Origin: an uncultured Candidatus Saccharibacteria bacterium
GTDB lineage: Bacteria > Patescibacteriota > Minisyncoccia > Portnoybacterales > UBA2143
Assembly (NCBI GenBank): GCA_964413015.1
Contig: CAYPQZ010000006.1
Span: forward strand, 7,070-71,069
DNA: 64,000 bases
Reading direction: 5' to 3'
The position numbers and the translations under genes are program-made. Below are positions 10,132 through 56,380 of this stretch, one piece after another. The first letter of the stretch is position 1. Each line of letters opens with the position of its first letter. A model generated the notes under the pieces. The model was not told where the DNA came from. It ran no database searches and saw only the letters and a program-made list of their open reading frames with translations.

Positions 10132-10203
10132 TTAGGGGTAAAAGATAAATTTGAAAAATTTAAGAATTATCGTTAAGTCATCAAAGGATAACCGGCTTTC
10201 AAA

Positions 10204-10307
10204 AATTTAAGGATTGTCATTGAGAGTAGCGACCTTCCGCTGAAGGCGAAAAGTCATGCTCGTCTGTCTGTCTCTGGAGGGAAAGGATAATTCTTAAATT
10301 TTGACAA
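10204..10307 (+). repeat. family-B repeat copy B2
   Basis: aatttaaggattgtcattgagagtagcgacc...ggaaaggataattcttaaattttgacaa. Confidence 0.75.
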
Positions 10308-10316
10308 GTTCAAGCA

Positions 10317-10380
10317 GATAAGAACAGTCTTTAAAATAACGCCTTTGTGCTCAAGGGACATCATTTTAAGGACTGTCCTT
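10317..10380 (+). repeat. family-A ~62-nt hairpin repeat copy A1
   Basis: gataagaacagtctttaaaataacgcctttgtgctcaagggacatcattttaaggactgtcctt. Confidence 0.75.
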
Positions 10381-11195: not shown

Positions 11196-11300
11196 TTGTC
11201 AAAATTTAAGGAGTCGTCCTTTCCCTCCAGAGGCGGGCAGGCGGACACGCCCTTTGCCTTCGGCAAAGGGACGTGATCCTCAATGACAATCCTTAAATTT
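11196..11300 (-). repeat. family-B repeat copy B3 (reverse)
   Basis: ttgtcaaaatttaaggagtcgtcctttccctccagaggcgggcaggcggacacgccctttgccttcggcaaagggacgtgatcctcaatgacaatccttaaattt. Confidence 0.75.
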
Positions 11301-11348
11301 CTTAAAGGCTGTTCTTGTCATTATGACAATCCCCAGATTTTAAAAGAA

Positions 11349-16017: not shown

Positions 16018-16046
16018 TTGACAGCTATTTGTTATGGGTATATACT
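16018..16046 (+). promoter_or_regulatory. sigma70-like promoter candidate (TTGACA, 17-nt spacer, TATACT) upstream of the DUF5320/NifX-like genes
   Basis: Read directly from sequence; it lies about 80 nt upstream of ATG 16129. Confidence 0.4.
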
Positions 16047-16128
16047 CATAAAGAGTATTACTAAAAACAGATGGCTGTTTCCTTTTAAAAGTCGCGGCTG
16101 TCTGGTAAAATAGAAAGGAGAATTAATT

Positions 16129-16401
16129 ATGCCTAATTTTAATGGAACAGGTCCTCGGGGACAAGGTCCAATGACTGGACGGGGAATGGGTAATTGCGCG
16201 CCGAATGGACAAACTCGGACGCCCGGTTACGGCCGCGGTTTTGGCCGTGGTCTTGGCTTTGGACGTGGCTGGGGATGGCCTGGCTATCGGGCACCCAGCG
16301 CCAAGGAAGAAAAGGAAATGTTGAATGAAGACCTCCAGGGGTTGAAGCATGAAATGGAAGGGGTGCAGTCCCGCCTTGAGGAGCTGAAAAATAAAAAGTA
16401 A
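16129..16401 (+). CDS. DUF5320-family small Gly/Arg-rich protein
   Basis: MPNFNGTGPRGQGPMTGRGMGNCAPNG...GYGRGFGRGLGFGRGWG with a C-terminal coiled-coil. This family classically sits beside NifX-like genes. Confidence 0.6.
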   Translation: MPNFNGTGPRGQGPMTGRGMGNCAPNGQTRTPGYGRGFGRGLGFGRGWGWPGYRAPSAKEEKEMLNEDLQGLKHEMEGVQSRLEELKNKK

Positions 16402-16409
16402 ATAACAAT

Positions 16410-16826
16410 ATGAAGATTTGTTTAAGTGTGAGTTCGCCTAGCTTAGATTCTTTAATAGATCCGAGGTTCGGACGAGCGCCCTATTTTCTTATCACTAATG
16501 AAAGAGGGGAAAAGGTGGAGACGATTCAGAATACCGGAGTGGATGCCATGGGAGGAGCCGGCGTTACGGCCGCCCAATTGGTTGTTTCTGCCGGCGCTCA
16601 AGTAGTCATTACTGGAAATCTCGGTCCGCGGGCTTTCGATGTTTTAGAAGCATCTGGGATAAAGATAATTGTTGGCATTTCCGGAATTTCGGCTAAAGAG
16701 ACCTTGGAAAAGTATCAGAAAGGCGATTTAGAAGAAATTGCCCGGCCGAGCGTGTCCGACCACTTTGGCGTAGGCCGGAGATTTGGCGGCGGCGGCCAAG
16801 GCAGAAGACAGGGCCAAGGCAGATAA
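16410..16826 (+). CDS. NifX/NifB-family (dinitrogenase FeMo-cofactor-binding fold) protein
   Basis: DPRFGRAPYFLI...GAQVVITGNLGPRAFDVLEASGIKI; Gly/Arg-rich tail. Confidence 0.75.
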   Translation: MKICLSVSSPSLDSLIDPRFGRAPYFLITNERGEKVETIQNTGVDAMGGAGVTAAQLVVSAGAQVVITGNLGPRAFDVLEASGIKIIVGISGISAKETLEKYQKGDLEEIARPSVSDHFGVGRRFGGGGQGRRQGQGR

Positions 16827-16866
16827 AGGACATTATTGAAAGTATTGAAGAACTGTCTTTAAGGAA

Positions 16867-16970
16867 ATTTAAGGATTGTCATTGAGAGTAGCGACCTTAC
16901 GCCGAAGGCGGAAAGTCGCGCTCGCCTGTCCGCCTCTGGAGGGAAAGGACGATTCCTTAAATTTTGACAA
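16867..16970 (+). repeat. family-B repeat copy B4
   Basis: aatttaaggattgtcattgagagtagcgaccttacgccgaaggcgg...ggaaaggacgattccttaaattttgacaa. Confidence 0.75.
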
Positions 16971-16982
16971 AGGCAACCCGAT

Positions 16983-17044
16983 AAGAACAGTCTTTAAAAT
17001 GACGCCCTTGTGCTCAAGGGACATCATTTTAAGGACTGTCCTTA
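16983..17044 (+). repeat. family-A hairpin copy A2
   Basis: aagaacagtctttaaaatgacgcccttgtgctcaagggacatcattttaaggactgtcctt. Confidence 0.75.
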
Positions 17045-17069
17045 TCGGAGGATTACCCTCTATGTACAT

Positions 17070-18308
17070 ATGAACCAAGTCTTTCAAAAAGGCCGACGAG
17101 CTACCATAATCTCCGCTTTGTTAACTGTCCTCTTGGCGGTAATCAAAGGAATTGTCGGACTTATTTCCGGAAGCGTTGTTTTGTTAGGCGACGCGGTGCA
17201 CAGTGCGGCTGATTCGCTTTCTAGCTTTGCCGCCTGGTTTGGCCTTAAAATTTCACAAAAAAAGCCCACCCAGAAGTTTTCTTACGGGTATTACAAGGCG
17301 GAAAATCTGACCGCTTTTTTGATTTCCGGTCTGATTATTCTGGCCGGCTTGCTGATTGCCAGGGAAAGCGTTGCCAAGTTCACGGTGGTTTCCCAGTTGA
17401 ATATCCCTTTGATTGCCGTGGGAGCGGCTGTGGTTGACGCTTTGGTTATGTTCACCATCGGCTCTTATGAAATGAAAATCGGCCGTAAAATAAATTCGCA
17501 GAGCTTAATTGCCGATGGCCGGGAATCGCGCCTGCATCTGCTTTCTTCGTCGTTGGTTTTAATCGGCTTACTGGCCGGCTGGATGAAAATCCCGTATTTA
17601 GAAGGAATTATGGGTTTGTTGATTTCGCTTTTTATTTTCCAGGCCGGCTTTAGCTCGGCTAAAGATTCGGTTTTTGCTTTAATGGATGTTTCTCCGGAAA
17701 AAGAAAAAGAAGACCGGGTTAAGAAAGTTTTAGGCAATATTCCCGGGGTTAGAAGTTTTGAAGGATTGAAATTAAGAAAATCCGGCCCCCTTATTTTCGG
17801 CGAAGTTAAAGTAAACGTTGGCCGGAGTTTAGACGTTAAAAAAGTCCAGGAAATCTCGGAGAAAATTGAACAGGAGATTAAAAAGAAAGTTAAATCAATC
17901 GATTCTTTCACAGTAATGGCCTCTTCTTTTAAGGCCGAAAAACAGAAAATCTGTCTGCCGATTGAAGAAGATAAAGGGCTGGATTCCTTAATGTTCAGCC
18001 ATTTTGGACGGGCTAAAAAGTTCATCTTTATCAATTTGGAAAAGAGCCAAATTAAGGATTATTACGTCAAAGACAACCCCTACCAAGGAAAAGAAGTTCG
18101 GGCCGGATTGAATACCGCTTTGCTGGTGGTTAAGGAAAAAGTTGATTCAGTAATTACCTGGGAAATTGGGCCAATTTCTCTGCATACTTTGAGAGACGAT
18201 CTAATTGAAGTTTATTCAGCTTCCGGCGGTTCGGTTAAGGAAATAGCTAAAAAATTTGCTCAGCAGAGTTTAAAACCCTTAAAAGAGCCGACTAAAGAAA
18301 AATTATGA
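17070..18308 (+). CDS. cation diffusion facilitator (CDF) transporter with a C-terminal NifX/NifB-like domain
   Basis: The listed ORF starts at 17010 inside repeat A2; ATG 17070 is likely. 6 TM with a CDF signature (HSAADSLSS...). The C-terminal ~110 aa (KICLPIEEDKGLDSLMFSHFGRAKKFIFINL...) resemble 16410-16826. Confidence 0.7.
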   Translation: MNQVFQKGRRATIISALLTVLLAVIKGIVGLISGSVVLLGDAVHSAADSLSSFAAWFGLKISQKKPTQKFSYGYYKAENLTAFLISGLIILAGLLIARESVAKFTVVSQLNIPLIAVGAAVVDALVMFTIGSYEMKIGRKINSQSLIADGRESRLHLLSSSLVLIGLLAGWMKIPYLEGIMGLLISLFIFQAGFSSAKDSVFALMDVSPEKEKEDRVKKVLGNIPGVRSFEGLKLRKSGPLIFGEVKVNVGRSLDVKKVQEISEKIEQEIKKKVKSIDSFTVMASSFKAEKQKICLPIEEDKGLDSLMFSHFGRAKKFIFINLEKSQIKDYYVKDNPYQGKEVRAGLNTALLVVKEKVDSVITWEIGPISLHTLRDDLIEVYSASGGSVKEIAKKFAQQSLKPLKEPTKEKL

Positions 18309-19138
18309 AGACATTAGGCGTAACTGGCGGGAAAGGAGGCACTGGCAAATCTACAGTATCTATTCTTTTAGCCAATAAATATTTCAAACAAGGCCAAAAA
18401 GTTGTTTTGGTTGACTGCGATGTGGAATGTCCCAATGAACATTTGCTTTTAGGCAAGGAGTTAAAAAAGCCTCAAGAAAAAATCTATACCAGTTTTCCCG
18501 AACTGGATAAAAGCAAATGCCAGAAATGCGGCGTTTGCGTAAAATCTTGCCAAAGCAACGCTATTTTTCAGGCGCCGGGCCAATATCCCGTGTTTATCAA
18601 GGATTTATGTTCCGGCTGTAGCGCCTGCTGGCTGGTTTGCCCAAATCAAGCTATTCATCCGGTTAAAGAAGAAACCGGCCAGATTTTTGTTAATCAGCTT
18701 AAAAAGAATTACTGGCTGATTACTGGATTAGCCAAGGCCGGCCTGGAAGAAACCGGCCCTATAGTCAGCCAGACTAAAAAATTCGCCCTGGAATTTGCCA
18801 AAAGCAAAGAAGCTGATATTCTGCTTTTGGATACGGCGGCCGGCACGCATTGCCCGGTGATTTCAGCTCTTTTGGGCGTTGATTCCGCTTACGCGGTGAC
18901 CGAGCCGACTCCGATGGGCGCTTTTGATTTGAATTTAATCCTGGATTTGTGCCGGAAGATCAAGGTTCCCATAGAAATAATTTTAAACCAGTCAGATTTA
19001 GGTAGTCAGGGAAAGATTCAGGAGATTGCCCAAAAGAACCAAGCTCAAATTGTTCAAAAAATACCTTATTCCAAAAAAATTGTTCAGGCCTATTCGCATG
19101 GGAAATTATTAGATTTTAATTATTCATGGGAAAAATGA
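18305..19138 (+). CDS. MinD/Mrp-family P-loop ATPase with two 4Fe-4S ferredoxin motifs
   Basis: GGKGGTGKST, CDVECPN, CQKCGVCVKSCQSNAI, CSGCSACWLVCPNQAI. Confidence 0.75.
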   Translation: MKTLGVTGGKGGTGKSTVSILLANKYFKQGQKVVLVDCDVECPNEHLLLGKELKKPQEKIYTSFPELDKSKCQKCGVCVKSCQSNAIFQAPGQYPVFIKDLCSGCSACWLVCPNQAIHPVKEETGQIFVNQLKKNYWLITGLAKAGLEETGPIVSQTKKFALEFAKSKEADILLLDTAAGTHCPVISALLGVDSAYAVTEPTPMGAFDLNLILDLCRKIKVPIEIILNQSDLGSQGKIQEIAQKNQAQIVQKIPYSKKIVQAYSHGKLLDFNYSWEK

Positions 19139-19947
19139 AAAAAAATATTTCAATTTTATCGCTGGTTTTATTCGGCCTTTTAACTATTTTTAATTTTTCC
19201 ATGTCCTCCGAAGCTGAAGAGGATTGTTTTCACTGCCAGACCCTTAGCCCTGATTTTCTGATGGAAGCCAACCAGCAGTTAACCTTAGTTAAGGTTATCT
19301 CTTTGGCGGCGGTGGATTCGGTTAATCCTTGCACTTTAGCTGTCCTTAGCTTAATGCTGATTGCTATTTTAACCTACAATCCCGAGAAAAAAAGAAACCT
19401 TTTGTTAGCCGGCCTGGCCTTTATTAGCTCGGTTTTTGCGATGTATTTGATTTATGGGTTGGTGATTATTGGATCTTTCGGTTTGCTGAGCTCTTTTAAA
19501 GTATTTCAACTTTGGCTTTACAAGATGGTTGGGCTTGGGGCGGTGGTTCTGGGATGCCTGAAAATTAGGGATTTTTGGAAAAAGCAGGCGGTTTGCCGAG
19601 TGGTTCCCAAGCTTGACCGGATATTGGGGAAAATAACCAGTCCGTCCGGAGCTTTTATGGTGGGTGCTTTTGTAACCATTTTCCTACTGCCTTGCACCAT
19701 CGGGCCCTATATTGTTTGCGGTGGGATTTTATGCGAACTGGGAATTTTGAAATCTCTGCCTTGGCTTTTGTTCTATAACCTGATATTTGTTCTGCCTATG
19801 CTAATTGTGGTTTTAATTATCTACTTTGGATTTGGAAAAGTAAGCGATATTTCCAGTTGGCAGGCCCGGAATATTAAATATCTTGATTTGGCGTCTGGCA
19901 TCATTATTCTGCTTTTAGGATTGGCAATGATTTGCGGAATCCTTTAA
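19126..19947 (+). CDS. CcdA/DsbD-like thiol-disulfide transmembrane protein (tentative)
   Basis: Signal peptide plus 6 TM. Cys pairs in TM context (VNPCTLAVL; LPCTIGPY; CGGILC). Confidence 0.45.
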   Translation: MGKMKKNISILSLVLFGLLTIFNFSMSSEAEEDCFHCQTLSPDFLMEANQQLTLVKVISLAAVDSVNPCTLAVLSLMLIAILTYNPEKKRNLLLAGLAFISSVFAMYLIYGLVIIGSFGLLSSFKVFQLWLYKMVGLGAVVLGCLKIRDFWKKQAVCRVVPKLDRILGKITSPSGAFMVGAFVTIFLLPCTIGPYIVCGGILCELGILKSLPWLLFYNLIFVLPMLIVVLIIYFGFGKVSDISSWQARNIKYLDLASGIIILLLGLAMICGIL

Positions 19948-19951
19948 TTTT

Positions 19952-20551
19952 ATGGATAAATTGGCAACTATTGATAACCAGCTTAAGGAAATAAGGGATG
20001 AAGTTGTTGAATGCCGGAAATGTTCTCTTTGCCAGACCAGAATTTATCCGGTTATCGGACAGGGCAGTCATCAGGCGGAAATTGCGCTGGTAGGCGAGGC
20101 GCCGGGCGCTTCTGAAGACCAAACCGGCTTCCCTTTTTGCGGACAAGCCGGAGGAATCCTTGATGAATTGCTGAATTCAGCTAATTTAAAAAGAGAGACC
20201 GTGTATATTTGCAATATCCTTAAATGCCGGCCGCCGAGCAATCGCGACCCGCAAAAAGAGGAAATAGCTGCCTGTGTTCCTTATTTAGAAAGGCAAATTC
20301 AGATTATCCAACCGGCGATTATCGGTCTTATGGGCAATTACGCAACCGCTTTCCTTTTGGAAAAATTCGGCCTAAAAGACAAAATCCAAGGGATTAGCCG
20401 GATTCACGGGCAGGTTTTTGAAGCCCAAGCGGGCTTTGGGCCGATTAAGCTGATTCCTTTATATCATCCGGCGGTGGCGGTCTATAACGCCAATATGAAA
20501 GAAATCCTTAAAAAAGACTTTAAAACCCTTTATGAAAAACAAAAACTTTAG
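19952..20551 (+). CDS. uracil-DNA glycosylase, family 4
   Basis: ECRKCSLC...GEAPGASEDQTGFPFCGQAG...YICNILKCRPPSNRDP. Confidence 0.8.
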   Translation: MDKLATIDNQLKEIRDEVVECRKCSLCQTRIYPVIGQGSHQAEIALVGEAPGASEDQTGFPFCGQAGGILDELLNSANLKRETVYICNILKCRPPSNRDPQKEEIAACVPYLERQIQIIQPAIIGLMGNYATAFLLEKFGLKDKIQGISRIHGQVFEAQAGFGPIKLIPLYHPAVAVYNANMKEILKKDFKTLYEKQKL

Positions 20552-21407
20552 ATTAGTGATTGCTTCCGGAAAAGGCGGGGTCGGCAAGTCCATGCTAACT
20601 TCGGCTTTGGCGATGCTTTACAGCCAAAAAAAGAAGATAATTGCAGTGGACGCTGATGTAGACGCGCCTAATCTGGCGGTTTGGCTGAACCAATTGGATG
20701 AAAAAAATGTCCAGTTTTCCAAGAAAATCTCTACTTCTTTGAAGGCAATCATTGACGAGAACAAATGCAATGGCTGCGGCCAGTGTGTTGATAAGTGTGT
20801 TTTTAGCGCTTTGAAAATTAAGAATCACAAGGCCAAAGTAAATCCTTTTTTATGCGAAGGATGCGGCGTTTGCCAAATTGTTTGTCCGCAGAAAGCGGTT
20901 GAATTAAGGCCGGTGGATAACGGCCAAATTAAGATGGTGAACACCGATTACGGCTTTCCTTTGTTTTCCGGCCAGCTTTTGCCGGGCGAAACCGGCTCGG
21001 GCAAAGTGGTGGCTGAAATTAAAAAGGCGGCCCGGGAAAAAGGCGATTGCGATTTAATGCTGATTGATTCCTCGCCGGGCACAGGTTGTCCGGTCATCGC
21101 TTCCTTTCAGGATGCTGATTTGGCGGTTTTAATCACTGAACCGACGCCTTCCGGATTAAGCGATTTGAAAAGAGTTCTGAAAGTGGTTGAGCATTTCCAG
21201 ATTCCTTTTAAGGTGGTGGTTAATAAATGGGATATTAATCCTTCAATAACCGGAGAAATAGAGGAAGAGTTTAAAAATGAGTTTTTAGGAAAAATTTCCT
21301 ATGACCAGGGTATTTTCAAGGCAATTGCCAATTTAACGCCTATTTTAAAAACCAAATTAAAGGCCAAACAGGAAATTAAAGCAATTTTCAAGAAATTATA
21401 CAGTTGA
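20532..21407 (+). CDS. MinD/Mrp-family P-loop ATPase with two 4Fe-4S ferredoxin motifs (second paralogue)
   Basis: SGKGGVGKS, CNGCGQCVDKCVFSAL, CEGCGVCQIVCPQKAV. The stop codon lies inside REP copy 4. Confidence 0.75.
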   Translation: MKNKNFRLVIASGKGGVGKSMLTSALAMLYSQKKKIIAVDADVDAPNLAVWLNQLDEKNVQFSKKISTSLKAIIDENKCNGCGQCVDKCVFSALKIKNHKAKVNPFLCEGCGVCQIVCPQKAVELRPVDNGQIKMVNTDYGFPLFSGQLLPGETGSGKVVAEIKKAAREKGDCDLMLIDSSPGTGCPVIASFQDADLAVLITEPTPSGLSDLKRVLKVVEHFQIPFKVVVNKWDINPSITGEIEEEFKNEFLGKISYDQGIFKAIANLTPILKTKLKAKQEIKAIFKKLYS

Positions 21408-21424
21408 GACGTCCAACGTCTCAA
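21404..21424. repeat. REP-like palindrome copy 4 (TTGAGACGTCCAACGTCTCAA)
   Basis: Seen directly, 17 kb from the transposase gene. Confidence 0.8.
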
Positions 21425-21441
21425 CTGCGTCTTAATTGCGT

Positions 21442-21726
21442 ATGACTAGGCCAGTTAAAAAAAGAAACATTGATTTTAACCCCAAAGTGACCTATTTCAA
21501 GCCGCGGGCAGTACCTTTGTCAATTTTAGAAGAGGTGGATTTGGGCGTGGATGAACTGGAATCTTTACGGCTTTGCGAACTAGAGAAAATGGAGCAGTCC
21601 AAGGCGGCCAAGCAAATGAAAATTTCTCAAAGCACTTTGCAGAGAATTTTAAGCTCGGCCCATGAAAAAGTCACCGAAGCCCTGATTCACGGCAAAGCGA
21701 TTAAAATCACCGAACCGGTAAAGTAA
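21442..21726 (+). CDS. DUF134/UPF0251-family putative DNA-binding protein
   Basis: MTRPVKKRNIDFNPKVTYFKPRAVPLSILEEVDLGVDELESLRLCELE...QSTLQRIL matches the DUF134 pattern (predicted sigma-70 region-4-like HTH). Confidence 0.65.
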   Translation: MTRPVKKRNIDFNPKVTYFKPRAVPLSILEEVDLGVDELESLRLCELEKMEQSKAAKQMKISQSTLQRILSSAHEKVTEALIHGKAIKITEPVK

Positions 21727-21773
21727 GGTTGTATAAAATAAGGCCGTGCCTTAAAATGCACAACCTTAAAAGT

Positions 21774-22814
21774 ATGGCTGAAAAGAAGAAAAAAGTTATA
21801 GTTGGTCTTTCGGGCGGCCTTGATTCGGCCGTTGCTTTGTTGTTGCTTAAAAAACAGGGATATCAGCCAATTGGTTTAACCCTCAAATTTAACTCACAGC
21901 AAAGCCGGGAATCTGTTAATCAAGCCAGAAAAAATTGCCAAAAGCTAAAAGTTCCTTTTAAAACCCTGGACTGTCGCCAAGAATTCAAAAAACAGGTGAT
22001 TGACTATTTTTCAAAACTCTTAAAACAGGGTAAAACTCCCAATCCCTGCATTGTTTGCAATCCTTTAGTTAAATTCAAGGCGCTTTTCAATTTTGCCAGC
22101 CAGCAGAATTGCCAATATGTCGCTACCGGCCATTATGCCAGAATTAAGAATGGCCAGCTTTTGAGAGCTAAAGACGAAAACAAAGACCAAAGCTATTTCC
22201 TGTGTTTGATGCGCCAAAATCAGTTAAAAAGAATAATTTTCCCTTTGGGCAATTTAACTAAACAAGAAGTTTATCAAATAGCCAAAAAAGAAAAACTGGG
22301 TTCAGTTATCCAGCAAAAAGAAAGCCAGGATTTATGCTTTAAACTGCCGAAATTAGCGGCCAATCCCGGGACAATAGTCGATTCCCAGAAAAATATCTTA
22401 GGTCGGCACCAAGGCCTTCATGAATATACTGTTGGCCAGCGAAAAGGGATTAAATTGTCCAACGGACCCTGGAAGGTGACCGGTTTTGATTATAAAAAGA
22501 ATCAGTTGATTGTGACTAATAAGAAAAATGACCCGCTTCTTTCTAAAAAGGAAATTGCTTTAACCCGAACCCATTTTATTTCTGGCCGGCCTAAGCAAAA
22601 GTCAATCAAGGTTAAAGCTAAAACCAGATTTAATCAGCCGCTGGCTTCGGCTAAATTGTCTTTGAGCTCGGCCGGGCCAGCCAGCCGGCTAATTTTTGAC
22701 CGACCGCAAAAATCAGTCGCTCCGGGCCAGTGGGCAGTTTTTTATTTACCACGCCGAAGCGGAGCAAAGACGGACGATGGCGAAATTTGTCTGGGCGGGG
22801 GAATGATAAAATGA
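21774..22814 (+). CDS. mnmA: tRNA-specific 2-thiouridylase MnmA
   Basis: PP-loop GLSGGLDSAV, NPCIVCN, ATGHYAR. The listed TTG start at 21729 is probably too early; ATG 21756 or 21774. Confidence 0.85.
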   Translation: MAEKKKKVIVGLSGGLDSAVALLLLKKQGYQPIGLTLKFNSQQSRESVNQARKNCQKLKVPFKTLDCRQEFKKQVIDYFSKLLKQGKTPNPCIVCNPLVKFKALFNFASQQNCQYVATGHYARIKNGQLLRAKDENKDQSYFLCLMRQNQLKRIIFPLGNLTKQEVYQIAKKEKLGSVIQQKESQDLCFKLPKLAANPGTIVDSQKNILGRHQGLHEYTVGQRKGIKLSNGPWKVTGFDYKKNQLIVTNKKNDPLLSKKEIALTRTHFISGRPKQKSIKVKAKTRFNQPLASAKLSLSSAGPASRLIFDRPQKSVAPGQWAVFYLPRRSGAKTDDGEICLGGGMIK

Positions 22815-38053: not shown

Positions 38054-38221
38054 AAGCTTGACAAGGATTCAATAAAATATTAAGCTGACTATACAGCTAT
38101 AGACAATAGGCAATTCCGCCAGAGGCGGAGTAAGACCTATCGAGGCGAATATTTCTTGCAGTAAGCTTGTCGAACTGTTTGTCTATGGTTTTCCATAGAT
38201 TTTTTAATTATCTAAACTGAT

Positions 38222-38283
38222 AAGAACAGTCTTTAAAATGACGCCCTTGTGCTCAAGGGACATCATTTTAAGGACTGTCCTTT
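38222..38283 (+). repeat. family-A hairpin copy A3
   Basis: Identical over 62 nt to A2/A4. Confidence 0.75.
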
Positions 38284-46869: not shown

Positions 46870-46945
46870 AAATTAAGGGAATTTAAGGATTGTCCTTATC
46901 ATCAGCGTATCCCAAGGGACATCATTTTAAAAACTGTCCTTAAAT
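46854..46945 (+). repeat. degenerate family-A/B composite repeat
   Basis: aaggacagtctttaaaaattaagggaatttaaggattgtcctt...cccaagggacatcattttaaaaactgtcctt. Confidence 0.5.
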
Positions 46946-51414: not shown

Positions 51415-51427
51415 AGGATAAGCTGAT

Positions 51428-51489
51428 AAGAACAGTCTTTAAAATGACGCCCTTGTGCTCAAGGGACATCATTTTAAGGACTGTCTTTT
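51428..51489 (+). repeat. family-A hairpin copy A4
   Basis: aagaacagtctttaaaatgacgcccttgtgctcaagggacatcattttaaggactgtc. Confidence 0.75.
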
Positions 51490-52575: not shown

Positions 52576-52601
52576 ACCAATTTTGACAATGACAAACAGA
52601 T

Positions 52602-52663
52602 AAGAACAGTCTTTAAAATGACACCCTTGTCCCAAGGGACATTATTTTAAGGACTGTCCTTAT
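52602..52663 (+). repeat. family-A hairpin copy A5 (shorter loop variant)
   Basis: taagaacagtctttaaaatgacacccttgtcccaagggacattattttaaggactgtcctt. Confidence 0.7.
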
Positions 52664-56245: not shown

Positions 56246-56275
56246 GTTAAGCAAGATAAGGACTGTCCTTAAGAG

Positions 56276-56380
56276 AATTTAAGGATTGTCATTGAGGATT
56301 ACGTCCCTTTACCGAAGTCAAAGGGCGTATCCGCCTGTCCGCCTCTGGAGGAAAAGGACGACTCCTTAAATTTTGACAAT
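56276..56380 (+). repeat. family-B repeat copy B6, preceded by a partial family-A arm (56259-56275)
   Basis: aatttaaggattgtcattgaggattacgtccctttaccgaagtcaaagggcgtatccgcctgtccgcctctggaggaaaaggacgactccttaaattttgacaa. Confidence 0.75.

Follow-up and report, generated by a model that had tools for sequence, protein, structure and literature searches.

What does a cluster of eight co-oriented genes do that combines two NifX-fold domains, a pair of ferredoxin-bearing ATPases and a metal transporter in a member of the Patescibacteria? The question is raised by positions 16018 to 21726 of a 64-kb stretch of contig CAYPQZ010000006.1, here called the window, by which the whole stretch of DNA that was analysed is meant. 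The answer to which the evidence slightly inclines is that of a self-regulated, membrane-linked operon of the orange-protein (ORP) type, which would handle inorganic metal-sulfide species, probably iron-sulfur (Fe-S), in a manner coupled to metal transport. An earlier note on the same DNA had listed eight co-oriented open reading frames with a family for each, and all eight are present on the + strand and match the named families above the curated cut-offs, with profile searches for Nitro_FeMo-Co, DUF134, DUF5320 and MinD-ferredoxin giving scores well above these values. The sigma70-like promoter that had been described there also held up, as a scan of the region ahead of the first gene, g1, found 11 of 12 consensus positions in the TTGACA-17-TATACT site. 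The features of the locus are the following:

16018-16046, + strand: sigma-70-type promoter, TTGACA-17 nt-TATACT (consensus scan)
16032-16051, unstranded: 20-bp palindrome TTATGGGTATATACTCATAA, candidate operator over the -10 box (motif scan)
16129-21726, + strand: eight co-oriented open reading frames, g1 to g8 (open reading frame listing of the window)
16129-16401, + strand: g1, DUF5320 protein of 90 amino acids (aa) (Pfam PF17253)
16410-16826, + strand: g2, NifX-fold (Nitro_FeMo-Co) carrier of the ORP/MTH1175 type (Pfam PF02579; PDB 1EO1, 2WFB)
17070-18308, + strand: g3, cation diffusion facilitator (CDF) metal/H+ antiporter with six transmembrane (TM) helices and a ZT_dimer domain, fused to a cytoplasmic NifX-fold domain (Pfam, NCBIfam)
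18305-19138, + strand: g4, MinD/NifH-like P-loop ATPase with an inserted 2x[4Fe-4S] ferredoxin domain, the 'first' paralogue (CbiA/ParA profiles)
19126-19947, + strand: g5, CcdA/DsbD-like membrane protein (Pfam SfLAP, 39.8 bits)
19952-20551, + strand: g6, family-4 uracil-DNA glycosylase (UDG), a [4Fe-4S] enzyme family (TIGR00758)
20532-21407, + strand: g7, second MinD/NifH-like ATPase with 2x[4Fe-4S] (CbiA/ParA profiles)
21436-21726, + strand: g8, DUF134 (UPF0251) helix-turn-helix (HTH) protein (PF02001; public gene calls start at ATG 21442)

The tight or overlapping spacing of the genes, with 8 nt between g1 and g2, overlaps at g3/g4, g4/g5 and g6/g7, and 4 nt between g5 and g6, argues for a single transcript and for g1 to g8 as one operon under a sigma-70-type promoter. 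The sole wide gap measures 243 nt and lies between g2 and g3.

A core of the orange-protein type

The product of g2 matches PF02579 with 77.2 bits (cut-off 26.3; E=1e-21), and among solved structures it comes closest to MTH1175 (1EO1, E=1.7e-20) and to the ORP of Desulfovibrio gigas (2WFB, E=3.7e-20, residues 2-113). This Pfam domain is common to g2, g3 and the NifX, NafY and NifB-C carriers, but the nearest solved proteins of g2 are ORP and MTH1175, neither NifX nor NafY. No nif genes and no radical-SAM NifB domain turned up in the operon or in the Pfam-annotated loci of relatives (about a dozen: L004-L011, L212 and L213), in which no search aimed at nif was made; loci L012-L091 were screened solely with hidden Markov models (HMMs) for the cluster's own families. 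A role in nitrogenase maturation was set aside on this lack of nif context, and the preference that the earlier note had expressed for metal or cluster handling stands, with CDF, ZIP and ABC-3 transporters recurring alongside.

Both ATPases, g4 and g7, consist of a CbiA/ParA P-loop domain with two C..C..C...C motifs apiece. The first paralogue has a deviant Walker A motif (GKGGTGKS), eight ferredoxin cysteines and cysteines in switch I/II (C38, C42, C183). Over the two paralogues together, the signature lysine of Walker A, all eight ferredoxin cysteines and the switch-II cysteine are invariant (46/46), with the switch-I cysteine kept in 37/46, an arrangement of switch cysteines that appears to recall the bridging-cluster site of NifH. 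The deviant Walker A lysine and the switch-II cysteine, frequently with one in switch I, are also found in NifH and in the CooC/Mrp branch of the SIMIBI ATPases, from which g4 and g7 differ by the 2x[4Fe-4S] ferredoxin insert after switch I; moreover, the CXXC motif of Mrp/Nbp35 is lacking, and no partner reductase or hydrogenase/carbon monoxide dehydrogenase genes are present. When compared with the ATPase pairs of other phyla, g7 is always nearest to the 'second' copy (23/23 loci), and for this reason the pair is likely to form an ancient heterodimer. The C-terminus of g7, QEIKAIFKKLY, is amphipathic with a hydrophobic moment of 0.61.

The orange protein has been known since 2000 and its complex since 2011. 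In Desulfovibrio, Orp8, the orange protein, is purified together with Orp3 and Orp4, which resemble each other, contain a pair of [4Fe-4S] motifs apiece and end in an amphipathic C-terminus like that of MinD, and all three receive Fe-S clusters from MrpORP; expression of the orp genes occurs only at about -425 mV under the control of sigma-54 and OrpR, and the role has been described as 'putatively cell division' (PMC6345978, PMC8359166). In a D. alaskensis data set, the orp genes change alongside feoA and flavodoxin (PMC10533852), which is a weak hint pointing to iron. The single-domain NifX-fold protein of D. vulgaris and D. alaskensis is matched by g2, the two MinD-type ATPases, which measure about 280-290 aa and bear a pair of [4Fe-4S] motifs apiece, are matched by g4 and g7 in architecture only, and the amphipathic C-terminal helix is paralleled on g7; both systems are restricted to anaerobe lineages. 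Judged by domain architecture, g2, g4 and g7 would thereby reproduce the ORP core. Control differs between the two, with sigma-54 and OrpR in Desulfovibrio as opposed to a sigma-70-type promoter, a palindrome and DUF134 in the window, and a profile search found no AAA+ enhancer-binding protein of the OrpR type encoded in the cluster. Relative to Desulfovibrio, the window operon adds the CDF-NifX fusion, the Gly/Arg tails, the UDG and the CcdA-like gene. The view of the earlier note that these genes have no assigned function is right in so far as the physiological role is unsettled, but it passed over the Desulfovibrio literature on the ORP system (PMC6345978, PMC8359166).

The link to Fe-S is drawn from a resemblance between g2 and IssA of Pyrococcus furiosus, a thioferrate iron-sulfur store that joins a NifX-fold domain (IPR003731) to a cationic Gly-rich tail; the structural model used for IssA was MTH1175, and the family description allows for shortened tails (PMC5524996). 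Both proteins have a NifX-fold domain with an acidic core (pI 5.1 in g2) and a cationic, Gly-rich, disordered tail, the pI of which is 12 in g2 and was reported as 10.7 for IssA. The tail of g2 comprises about 25 aa, of which 56% are G+R and a single one is aromatic, whereas that of IssA is about 70 aa long and aromatic-rich. The Gly/Arg/Trp/Phe repeat character of the IssA tails, compared by description, is found in DUF5320 together with one Cys. Unlike g2, which shares its operon with both, IssA has no reported ATPase or transporter partner. The NifX proteins of Patescibacteria clusters typically have Gly/Arg tails, and similar ones occur on DUF5320 and on long forms of DUF134.

A conserved module behind a palindrome

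The conservation of the cluster was assessed by a scan of one genome per species, in which at least 536 species carried the N-terminal motif of DUF5320 and 80 loci were retained. These loci were annotated with HMMs built from the window proteins, with the CDF labels coming from domain-level models, and neighbourhood counts refer to 53 DUF5320 loci, each from another species and each followed by 4 kb of sequence or more. A partner gene (DUF134, NifX, MinD-ferredoxin or CDF-NifX) lies within 5 kb at 49 of these 53 loci (92%), a co-conservation far above chance. Taken singly and over the same distance, DUF134 is found at 68% of the loci, NifX at 58%, MinD-ferredoxin at 53% (two copies at 34%), MinD/Mrp proteins devoid of the ferredoxin insert at 28% (15/53, often in clusters from outside the Patescibacteria), DsbD-like proteins at 26%, CDF or ZIP at 21% and UDG at 6%. 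The core genes co-occur in at least a dozen phyla of Bacteria and Archaea, so that both the co-occurrence of DUF134, NifX-like and MinD-ferredoxin genes in anaerobic bacteria and archaea, which the earlier note had stated, and the conservation of gene neighbourhood are borne out by the survey.

The arrangement of the genes varies with lineage. Clostridia, Sphaerochaeta, Cloacimonadota and Thermotogae mostly have DUF5320 first, followed by DUF134, NifX, two MinD-ferredoxin genes, an Mrp-like gene and a further NifX gene. In DPANN archaea and many Patescibacteria the arrangement is minimal and consists of the DUF5320-DUF134 pair; the gene that often comes next encodes a thioredoxin-DsbD protein, a ZIP or CDF transporter, an ArsP-type permease or a NifX protein. 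In relatives with a CDF-NifX protein 55-78% identical to g3, the order is DUF5320, NifX, CDF-NifX, MinD-ferredoxin, a variable stretch, UDG, second MinD-ferredoxin and DUF134, and the variable stretch may be taken up by dehydrogenases for isocitrate and glutamate, by an ITPase, or by genes for thioredoxin, thioredoxin reductase, a SLAC1/TehA channel and an ABC-3 metal permease as a set. The idea of eight genes as one cluster is thus upheld for the core, but not for the CcdA-like gene and the UDG, which are variable or lineage-restricted. At L213 (8068-13239; CDF-NifX 68% identical), a pyridine-nucleotide disulfide oxidoreductase, a ferredoxin, a thioredoxin, a SLAC1/TehA channel, a thioredoxin reductase and an ABC-3 metal transporter stand in place of the cluster's second half. 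Gudongella sp. (L008/L012) has a DUF5320-NifX-ATPase-ATPase-NifX cluster with no DUF134 nearby; the genes on its flanks are those of a tungsten-type aldehyde:ferredoxin oxidoreductase, MobB, and ThiS/MoaD-like and ThiF/MoeB-like proteins, in which a possible hint of a Mo/W link may be seen.

The named close homologues of g3 and g8 all belong to the Patescibacteria (Wolfebacteria, Portnoybacteria, Nealsonbacteria), and this makes the reduced, non-diazotrophic genome that had been assumed plausible. A CDF-NifX protein identical to that of g3 has been deposited under 'Firmicutes bacterium ML8_F2' and also occurs in JGI metagenomes; since every close named homologue is patescibacterial, the Firmicutes label is probably wrong. 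The labels of several metagenome-assembled genomes in the GTDB collection, given as Gammaproteobacteria or Bdellovibrionales, likewise look unreliable, as these genomes carry operators and gene sets of the DPANN or Patescibacteria type.

The earlier note had missed the cationic tails of the IssA type, a repeat insertion in the wide gap of the operon and the palindrome that overlies the -10 box. TTATG-N10-CATAA has a single exact match within the window, at 16032-16051. A 20-bp palindrome is common to the 200-nt regions upstream of DUF5320 genes and falls into three classes, TTATGGGTATATACTCATAA in Patescibacteria, TTATGAATATATATTCATAA in DPANN and TTATTGACATATGyCCATAA in Firmicutes and Spirochaetes. 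Of the 25 exact matches to TTATG-N10-CATAA in 1.0 Mb of related loci, 19 lie within 220 nt upstream of DUF5320, a zone that makes up 2% of the sequence, and a further two immediately precede DUF134 at loci that begin with it, which amounts to an enrichment of about 40-fold upstream of the two genes. The same picture emerges from a metagenome scan with the exact Patescibacteria 20-mer, which returned at least 120 contigs, 102 of them with enough downstream sequence to be assessed: among the matches listed, the next gene within 300 nt is DUF5320 or DUF134 in 97 of 102 contigs, with DUF5320 first in 91 and DUF134 first in 6. The Firmicute core TGACATATGTCA behaves as the Patescibacteria motif does, since 22 of its 24 matches in the 1.0 Mb fall upstream of DUF5320 or DUF134; its sites are usually paired about 37 bp apart, at about -72 and about -35 from the start codon, and come from Firmicutes and Spirochaetes (L012, L021, L040, L041, L043, L048, L054, L055, L064-L066, L069, L071, L072). 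In most of 114 distinct related upstream regions a TTGACA -35 box is placed 8 nt upstream of the palindrome, and apart from this box the flanking bases are not conserved, which suggests that the palindrome itself is under selection. About half of the 5' leaders of Patescibacteria (L092-L211) contain a short motif, AAAGGTCG, at a variable distance of 4-20 nt past the palindrome, with AAAAGTCG at 16089-16096 as its counterpart in the window.

The palindrome goes with the presence of DUF134 (22/53 against 1/17 loci; Fisher p=0.007), and DUF134 is the only DNA-binding fold among the products of the cluster, as judged by profiles and an AlphaFold 2 (AF2) model. The g8 protein matches PF02001 with 76.4 bits (cut-off 27; E=3e-21) and Sigma70_r4 weakly, and a sequence search found no solved structure for it. 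Its AF2 model has a three-helix HTH core with a predicted local distance difference test score (pLDDT) of about 90, to which sigma region 4 and the DeoR HTH are the nearest folds with weak E-values. Identity among the DUF134 proteins of Patescibacteria is unusually high (66-91%), in parallel with the near-invariant palindrome. From these associations we infer that DUF134 is the repressor acting at the palindrome, with DUF5320, almost always the first gene past the palindrome, as its putative partner. Long forms of DUF134 (L033, L040, L065, L089) end in Gly/Arg tails that contain Cys pairs, GCGRGCRMGRGRH being one example.

DUF5320 is a large family with 11,235 representatives at E<=1e-3 and homologues in Clostridia, DPANN archaea and many further groups, to which g1 belongs with 79.9 bits against PF17253 (cut-off 27; E=3e-22). 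In the alignment, an invariant N-terminus, MPxxxGTGPxGxGPxTGRGxGxC, is followed by GRGF/W repeats and a C-terminal coiled-coil-like helix, so that the protein has one invariant Cys and a polycationic stretch of Gly, Arg and aromatic residues. The GTGPxGxGPxTGRGxGxC motif is doubled in some DUF5320 proteins (P0361, P0362, P0364, P0431). In the library of papers that was searched, nothing relevant turned up on DUF5320, DUF134, UPF0251, the COG numbers or the palindrome, nor anything on what the two families do. In various genomes, other cargo behind the palindrome comprises thioredoxin-DsbD proteins, small thioredoxins, AhpD-like proteins, ZIP, CDF and ABC-3 transporters and YibE/F, of which thiophilic metals and thiol/sulfide redox chemistry would be the common theme.

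The transporter and the accessory features

The profiles matched by g3 are Cation_efflux (PF01545, 144 bits), ZT_dimer (PF16916, 48.5 bits), Nitro_FeMo-Co (49.3 bits) and TIGR01297 (211 vs 82 bits), and the closest solved structure is that of FieF/YiiP. The start of g3 is most likely ATG 17070, which gives 412 aa as in public gene calls; GTG 17010 was set aside in its favour. The six-helix Cation_efflux domain, the ZT_dimer domain and an H/D-type pair in TM2 are common to g3 and FieF/YiiP, from which g3 departs by an E152/H156 pair in TM5 instead of H/D, by the loss of the site-B ligands and by the extra C-terminal NifX-fold domain. The transport site of g3 is accordingly H44, D48 / E152, H156 (17199-17213 and 17523-17537), where the equivalents in the aligned YiiP of E. 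coli are D45, D49 / H153, D157, and neither of the canonical site-A quartets of CDF proteins, DD-HD or HD-HD, is present. All 120 of the 120 listed g3 homologues have the H,D/E,H quartet and have lost the site-B ligands, while an HD-HD quartet and site B are kept by distant CDF-NifX fusions and by unfused CDFs of DPANN that adjoin DUF5320/DUF134 (L019, L030, L047, L056 and the DPANN loci). We know of no characterised CDF with the H,D/E,H quartet. Two His, one Asp and one Glu would suit Fe2+, Mn2+ or Zn2+, and a resemblance of g3 to MamB/MamM exists by NCBIfam similarity that is below threshold. The CDF-NifX fusion was seen solely in records labelled as Patescibacteria. In the window, L004, L005 and L212 the start of the first ATPase gene overlaps the stop of the CDF-NifX gene, and in L006/L007 and L213 no more than 4 nt separate the two; g3 and g4 are accordingly predicted to be translationally coupled in the CDF-NifX loci examined.

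The naming of g5 as CcdA-like needs a qualification. Its own Pfam match is to SfLAP alone and not to DsbD_TM, but it is strongly homologous to thioredoxin-DsbD_TM proteins that are encoded beside DUF5320/DUF134, one of which reaches PF02683 (27.6 vs 27.1 bits). In g5, an N-terminal CFHC motif on the external side follows a signal anchor, and two 'PC' motifs (68-69, 189-190) lie in the membrane; because of these motifs and this homology 'CcdA/DsbD-like' appears to be a fair label. A sequence search found no solved structure for g5; the gene is absent from L004, L005 and L213 and is often missing or replaced in relatives.

The UDG encoded by g6 is clear-cut, with 209 bits against TIGR00758 (cut-off 125) and 4ZBX as the closest solved structure (E=8.5e-51). 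Cysteines are found at positions 21, 24, 27, 87, 92 and 108, a set that would provide the ligands of the [4Fe-4S] cluster. Several Patescibacteria versions of the cluster keep the gene, and at L212 it stands beside an ITPase, another nucleotide-hygiene gene. A part for the UDG as a conserved functional member was set aside on account of its presence near 3/53 DUF5320 loci overall and of the ITPase neighbour in L212; the protein is probably a passenger or an Fe-S client.

What fills the 243 nt between g2 and g3 is a dispersed hairpin repeat that was inserted there and is no part of the system. The gap folds with z=-7.8 vs shuffled controls, and the window contains at least nine further copies, all intergenic, so that at least ten copies are present in 64 kb; the unit reaches about 180-240 nt and its stem about 29 bp. 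A riboswitch or leader RNA ahead of the CDF gene was considered for this gap and ruled out by the dispersed copies, by an Rfam search of the 243 nt with no match and by the lack of the repeat in L212 and L213, in which the CDF-NifX proteins are 78% and 68% identical to g3. The repeat copies and the genes next to the operon are listed below:

16827-17069, unstranded: dispersed hairpin repeat in the g2-g3 gap, similar to a miniature inverted-repeat transposable element or repetitive extragenic palindrome
10203-10380: further copy with 90% identity
8286-8465, 11196-11316, 56258-56379, 52579-52663, 38219-38282, 51425-51488, 32550-32616 and 46873-46942: further copies
upstream of the operon: H+-pyrophosphatase gene
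21401-21427, + strand: perfect hairpin with a 12-bp stem, CAGTTGAGACGT CCA ACGTCTCAACTG, covering the g7 stop codon and the g7-g8 spacer
21729-22814: mnmA (tRNA 2-thiouridylase)

The mnmA gene begins 2 nt past the g8 stop with no terminator between them, a junction also present in L212, and the operon transcript may extend into it. The scan for terminator-like structures found no T-run behind the stem of the hairpin at 21401-21427, which could tune the expression of the regulator gene.

Mechanism, alternatives and meaning

A mechanism that accommodates these features would begin at the palindrome, where a DUF134 dimer would bind over the -10 box and repress transcription, with DUF5320 as its sensing partner. 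The products of g4 and g7 would form a heterodimeric ATPase of the NifH/MinD kind with two [4Fe-4S] clusters per subunit and conserved switch cysteines, and this ATPase would act on NifX-fold carrier domains as Orp3/Orp4 would on the orange protein. Two such carriers may be served, the soluble g2 with its IssA-like cationic tail and a second one fused to the cytoplasmic end of the g3 antiporter. The outcome would be that an inorganic anionic metal-sulfide, most likely Fe-S, is assembled, buffered or disposed of at the expense of ATP and electrons, and that this is coupled to the movement of metal ions across the membrane under reduced, sulfidic conditions. In this process, the CcdA-like g5 might supply thiol reducing power outward, with g5 and the [4Fe-4S] UDG being accessory or passenger genes. 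The metal link in this mechanism is drawn from the CDF, ZIP, ABC-3 and YibE/F genes that recur behind the palindrome or near DUF5320/DUF134.

Several observations weigh against this mechanism. In its native state the orange protein carries a Mo/Cu-S and not an Fe-S cluster, and the NifX domains of g2 and g3 show no obvious Cys ligands. MrpORP (Mrp/NBP35-NifX), from which the Desulfovibrio proteins obtain their clusters, is missing, with a best NF041136 score of 57 bits vs a cut-off of 450 and no Mrp-type gene in the operon. As the H,D/E,H site has no known characterised counterpart, the substrate of g3 is not readable from it; furthermore, the metal moved by CDFs leaves the cytoplasm, yet the ZIP proteins that share the palindrome elsewhere are importers, so that a logic of excess metal is not universal. 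DUF134 is tied to the palindrome by association, Gudongella L012 has an operator-like site with no DUF134 nearby, and the mechanism does not account for the retention of UDG in the Patescibacteria versions. All of the evidence is computational.

A bolder form of the same mechanism is speculative and rather improbable. According to it, DUF5320-DUF134 would be a new sensor-repressor pair of bacteria and archaea, in which DUF5320, as an analogue of the IssA tail, would bind an inorganic anionic iron-sulfide (thioferrate-like) or polysulfide species and thereby gate DUF134 at the palindrome. In Patescibacteria this pair would drive a machine at the membrane, made up of the CDF-NifX fusion, the soluble NifX carrier and the NifH-like ATPases with their 4Fe-4S clusters, by which an Fe-S mineral species would be built, stored or expelled.

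The competing explanation that survives best, doubtful as it is, is a narrow metal-homeostasis regulon, in which DUF134 and DUF5320 would sense Zn, Mn or Fe, the CDF would export the excess, the NifX domain would serve solely as a cytoplasmic metal sensor or regulatory domain and the ATPases would be metallochaperones of the CooC/HypB type. Such a regulon would agree with a minimal form made up of DUF5320-DUF134 alone or plus a transporter, and with CDF, ZIP and ABC-3 as the commonest cargo behind the palindrome in small-genome bacteria and archaea; metal-insertion NTPases are also established among the relatives of the MinD family. It is at odds with the presence of importers as well as exporters behind one palindrome and with thiol-redox cargo (thioredoxin, DsbD-like, AhpD-like) that is equally common as transporters. 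Outside Patescibacteria and DPANN, moreover, the regulator pair mostly stands before NifX and MinD-ferredoxin genes with no transporter.

Handling of Mo- or W-sulfide (thiomolybdate or thiotungstate, with Cu) would explain why g2 is as near to the Mo/Cu-binding ORP (2WFB) as to any solved protein and why the Gudongella cluster lies beside the tungsten-type oxidoreductase and the MobB, ThiS/MoaD-like and ThiF/MoeB-like genes described above. This role is nonetheless unlikely, since the substrates of CDFs are cations and not oxyanions, and the Patescibacteria and DPANN neighbourhoods examined show no molybdenum-cofactor genes. According to work cited within PMC6345978, the Mo/Cu cluster can also be formed in vitro with several metals.

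A positioning or cell-division role like that of MinD, as first proposed for the Desulfovibrio ORP complex, is judged less probable still. The transporter fusion, the NifX carriers, the eight invariant ferredoxin cysteines per subunit and the metal and thiol cargo all indicate chemistry, and the MinD-like amphipathic C-terminus of g7, which fits a positioning role, would be equally able to dock the ATPase at a membrane transporter; the morphology defects of an orpR mutant and the polar localisation of MrpORP, both cited in PMC6345978 and PMC8359166, speak for it. That there is no functional unit at all and the gene order was kept by descent in a compact genome is highly improbable for a core that co-occurs in at least a dozen phyla of both domains and is tracked by a specific palindrome, and it is a viable account for g5 and g6 only, given that the UDG and the CcdA-like gene are not constant and that isocitrate dehydrogenase, glutamate dehydrogenase and ITPase are inserted in some relatives.

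The preferred reading, that of an ORP-type operon handling metal-sulfide at the membrane, contains a known part in its core, which is of a functionally unresolved kind. New are the H,D/E,H transport site and NifX fusion of the CDF, and the DUF134/DUF5320 module with its candidate operator across bacteria and archaea. For the ORP system, which is without an accepted function, the version fused to a transporter argues for metal-sulfide chemistry at the membrane. DUF5320, with more than 11,000 sequence clusters, and DUF134 gain a prediction that is ready for an electrophoretic mobility shift assay, with an operator, the genes it would control and a partner. The presence of the module in ultra-small bacteria (Patescibacteria) and archaea (DPANN) makes it one of the few circuits in these organisms that can be read straight from their genomes, and it may bear on the balance of iron, sulfide and thiol redox in both groups.

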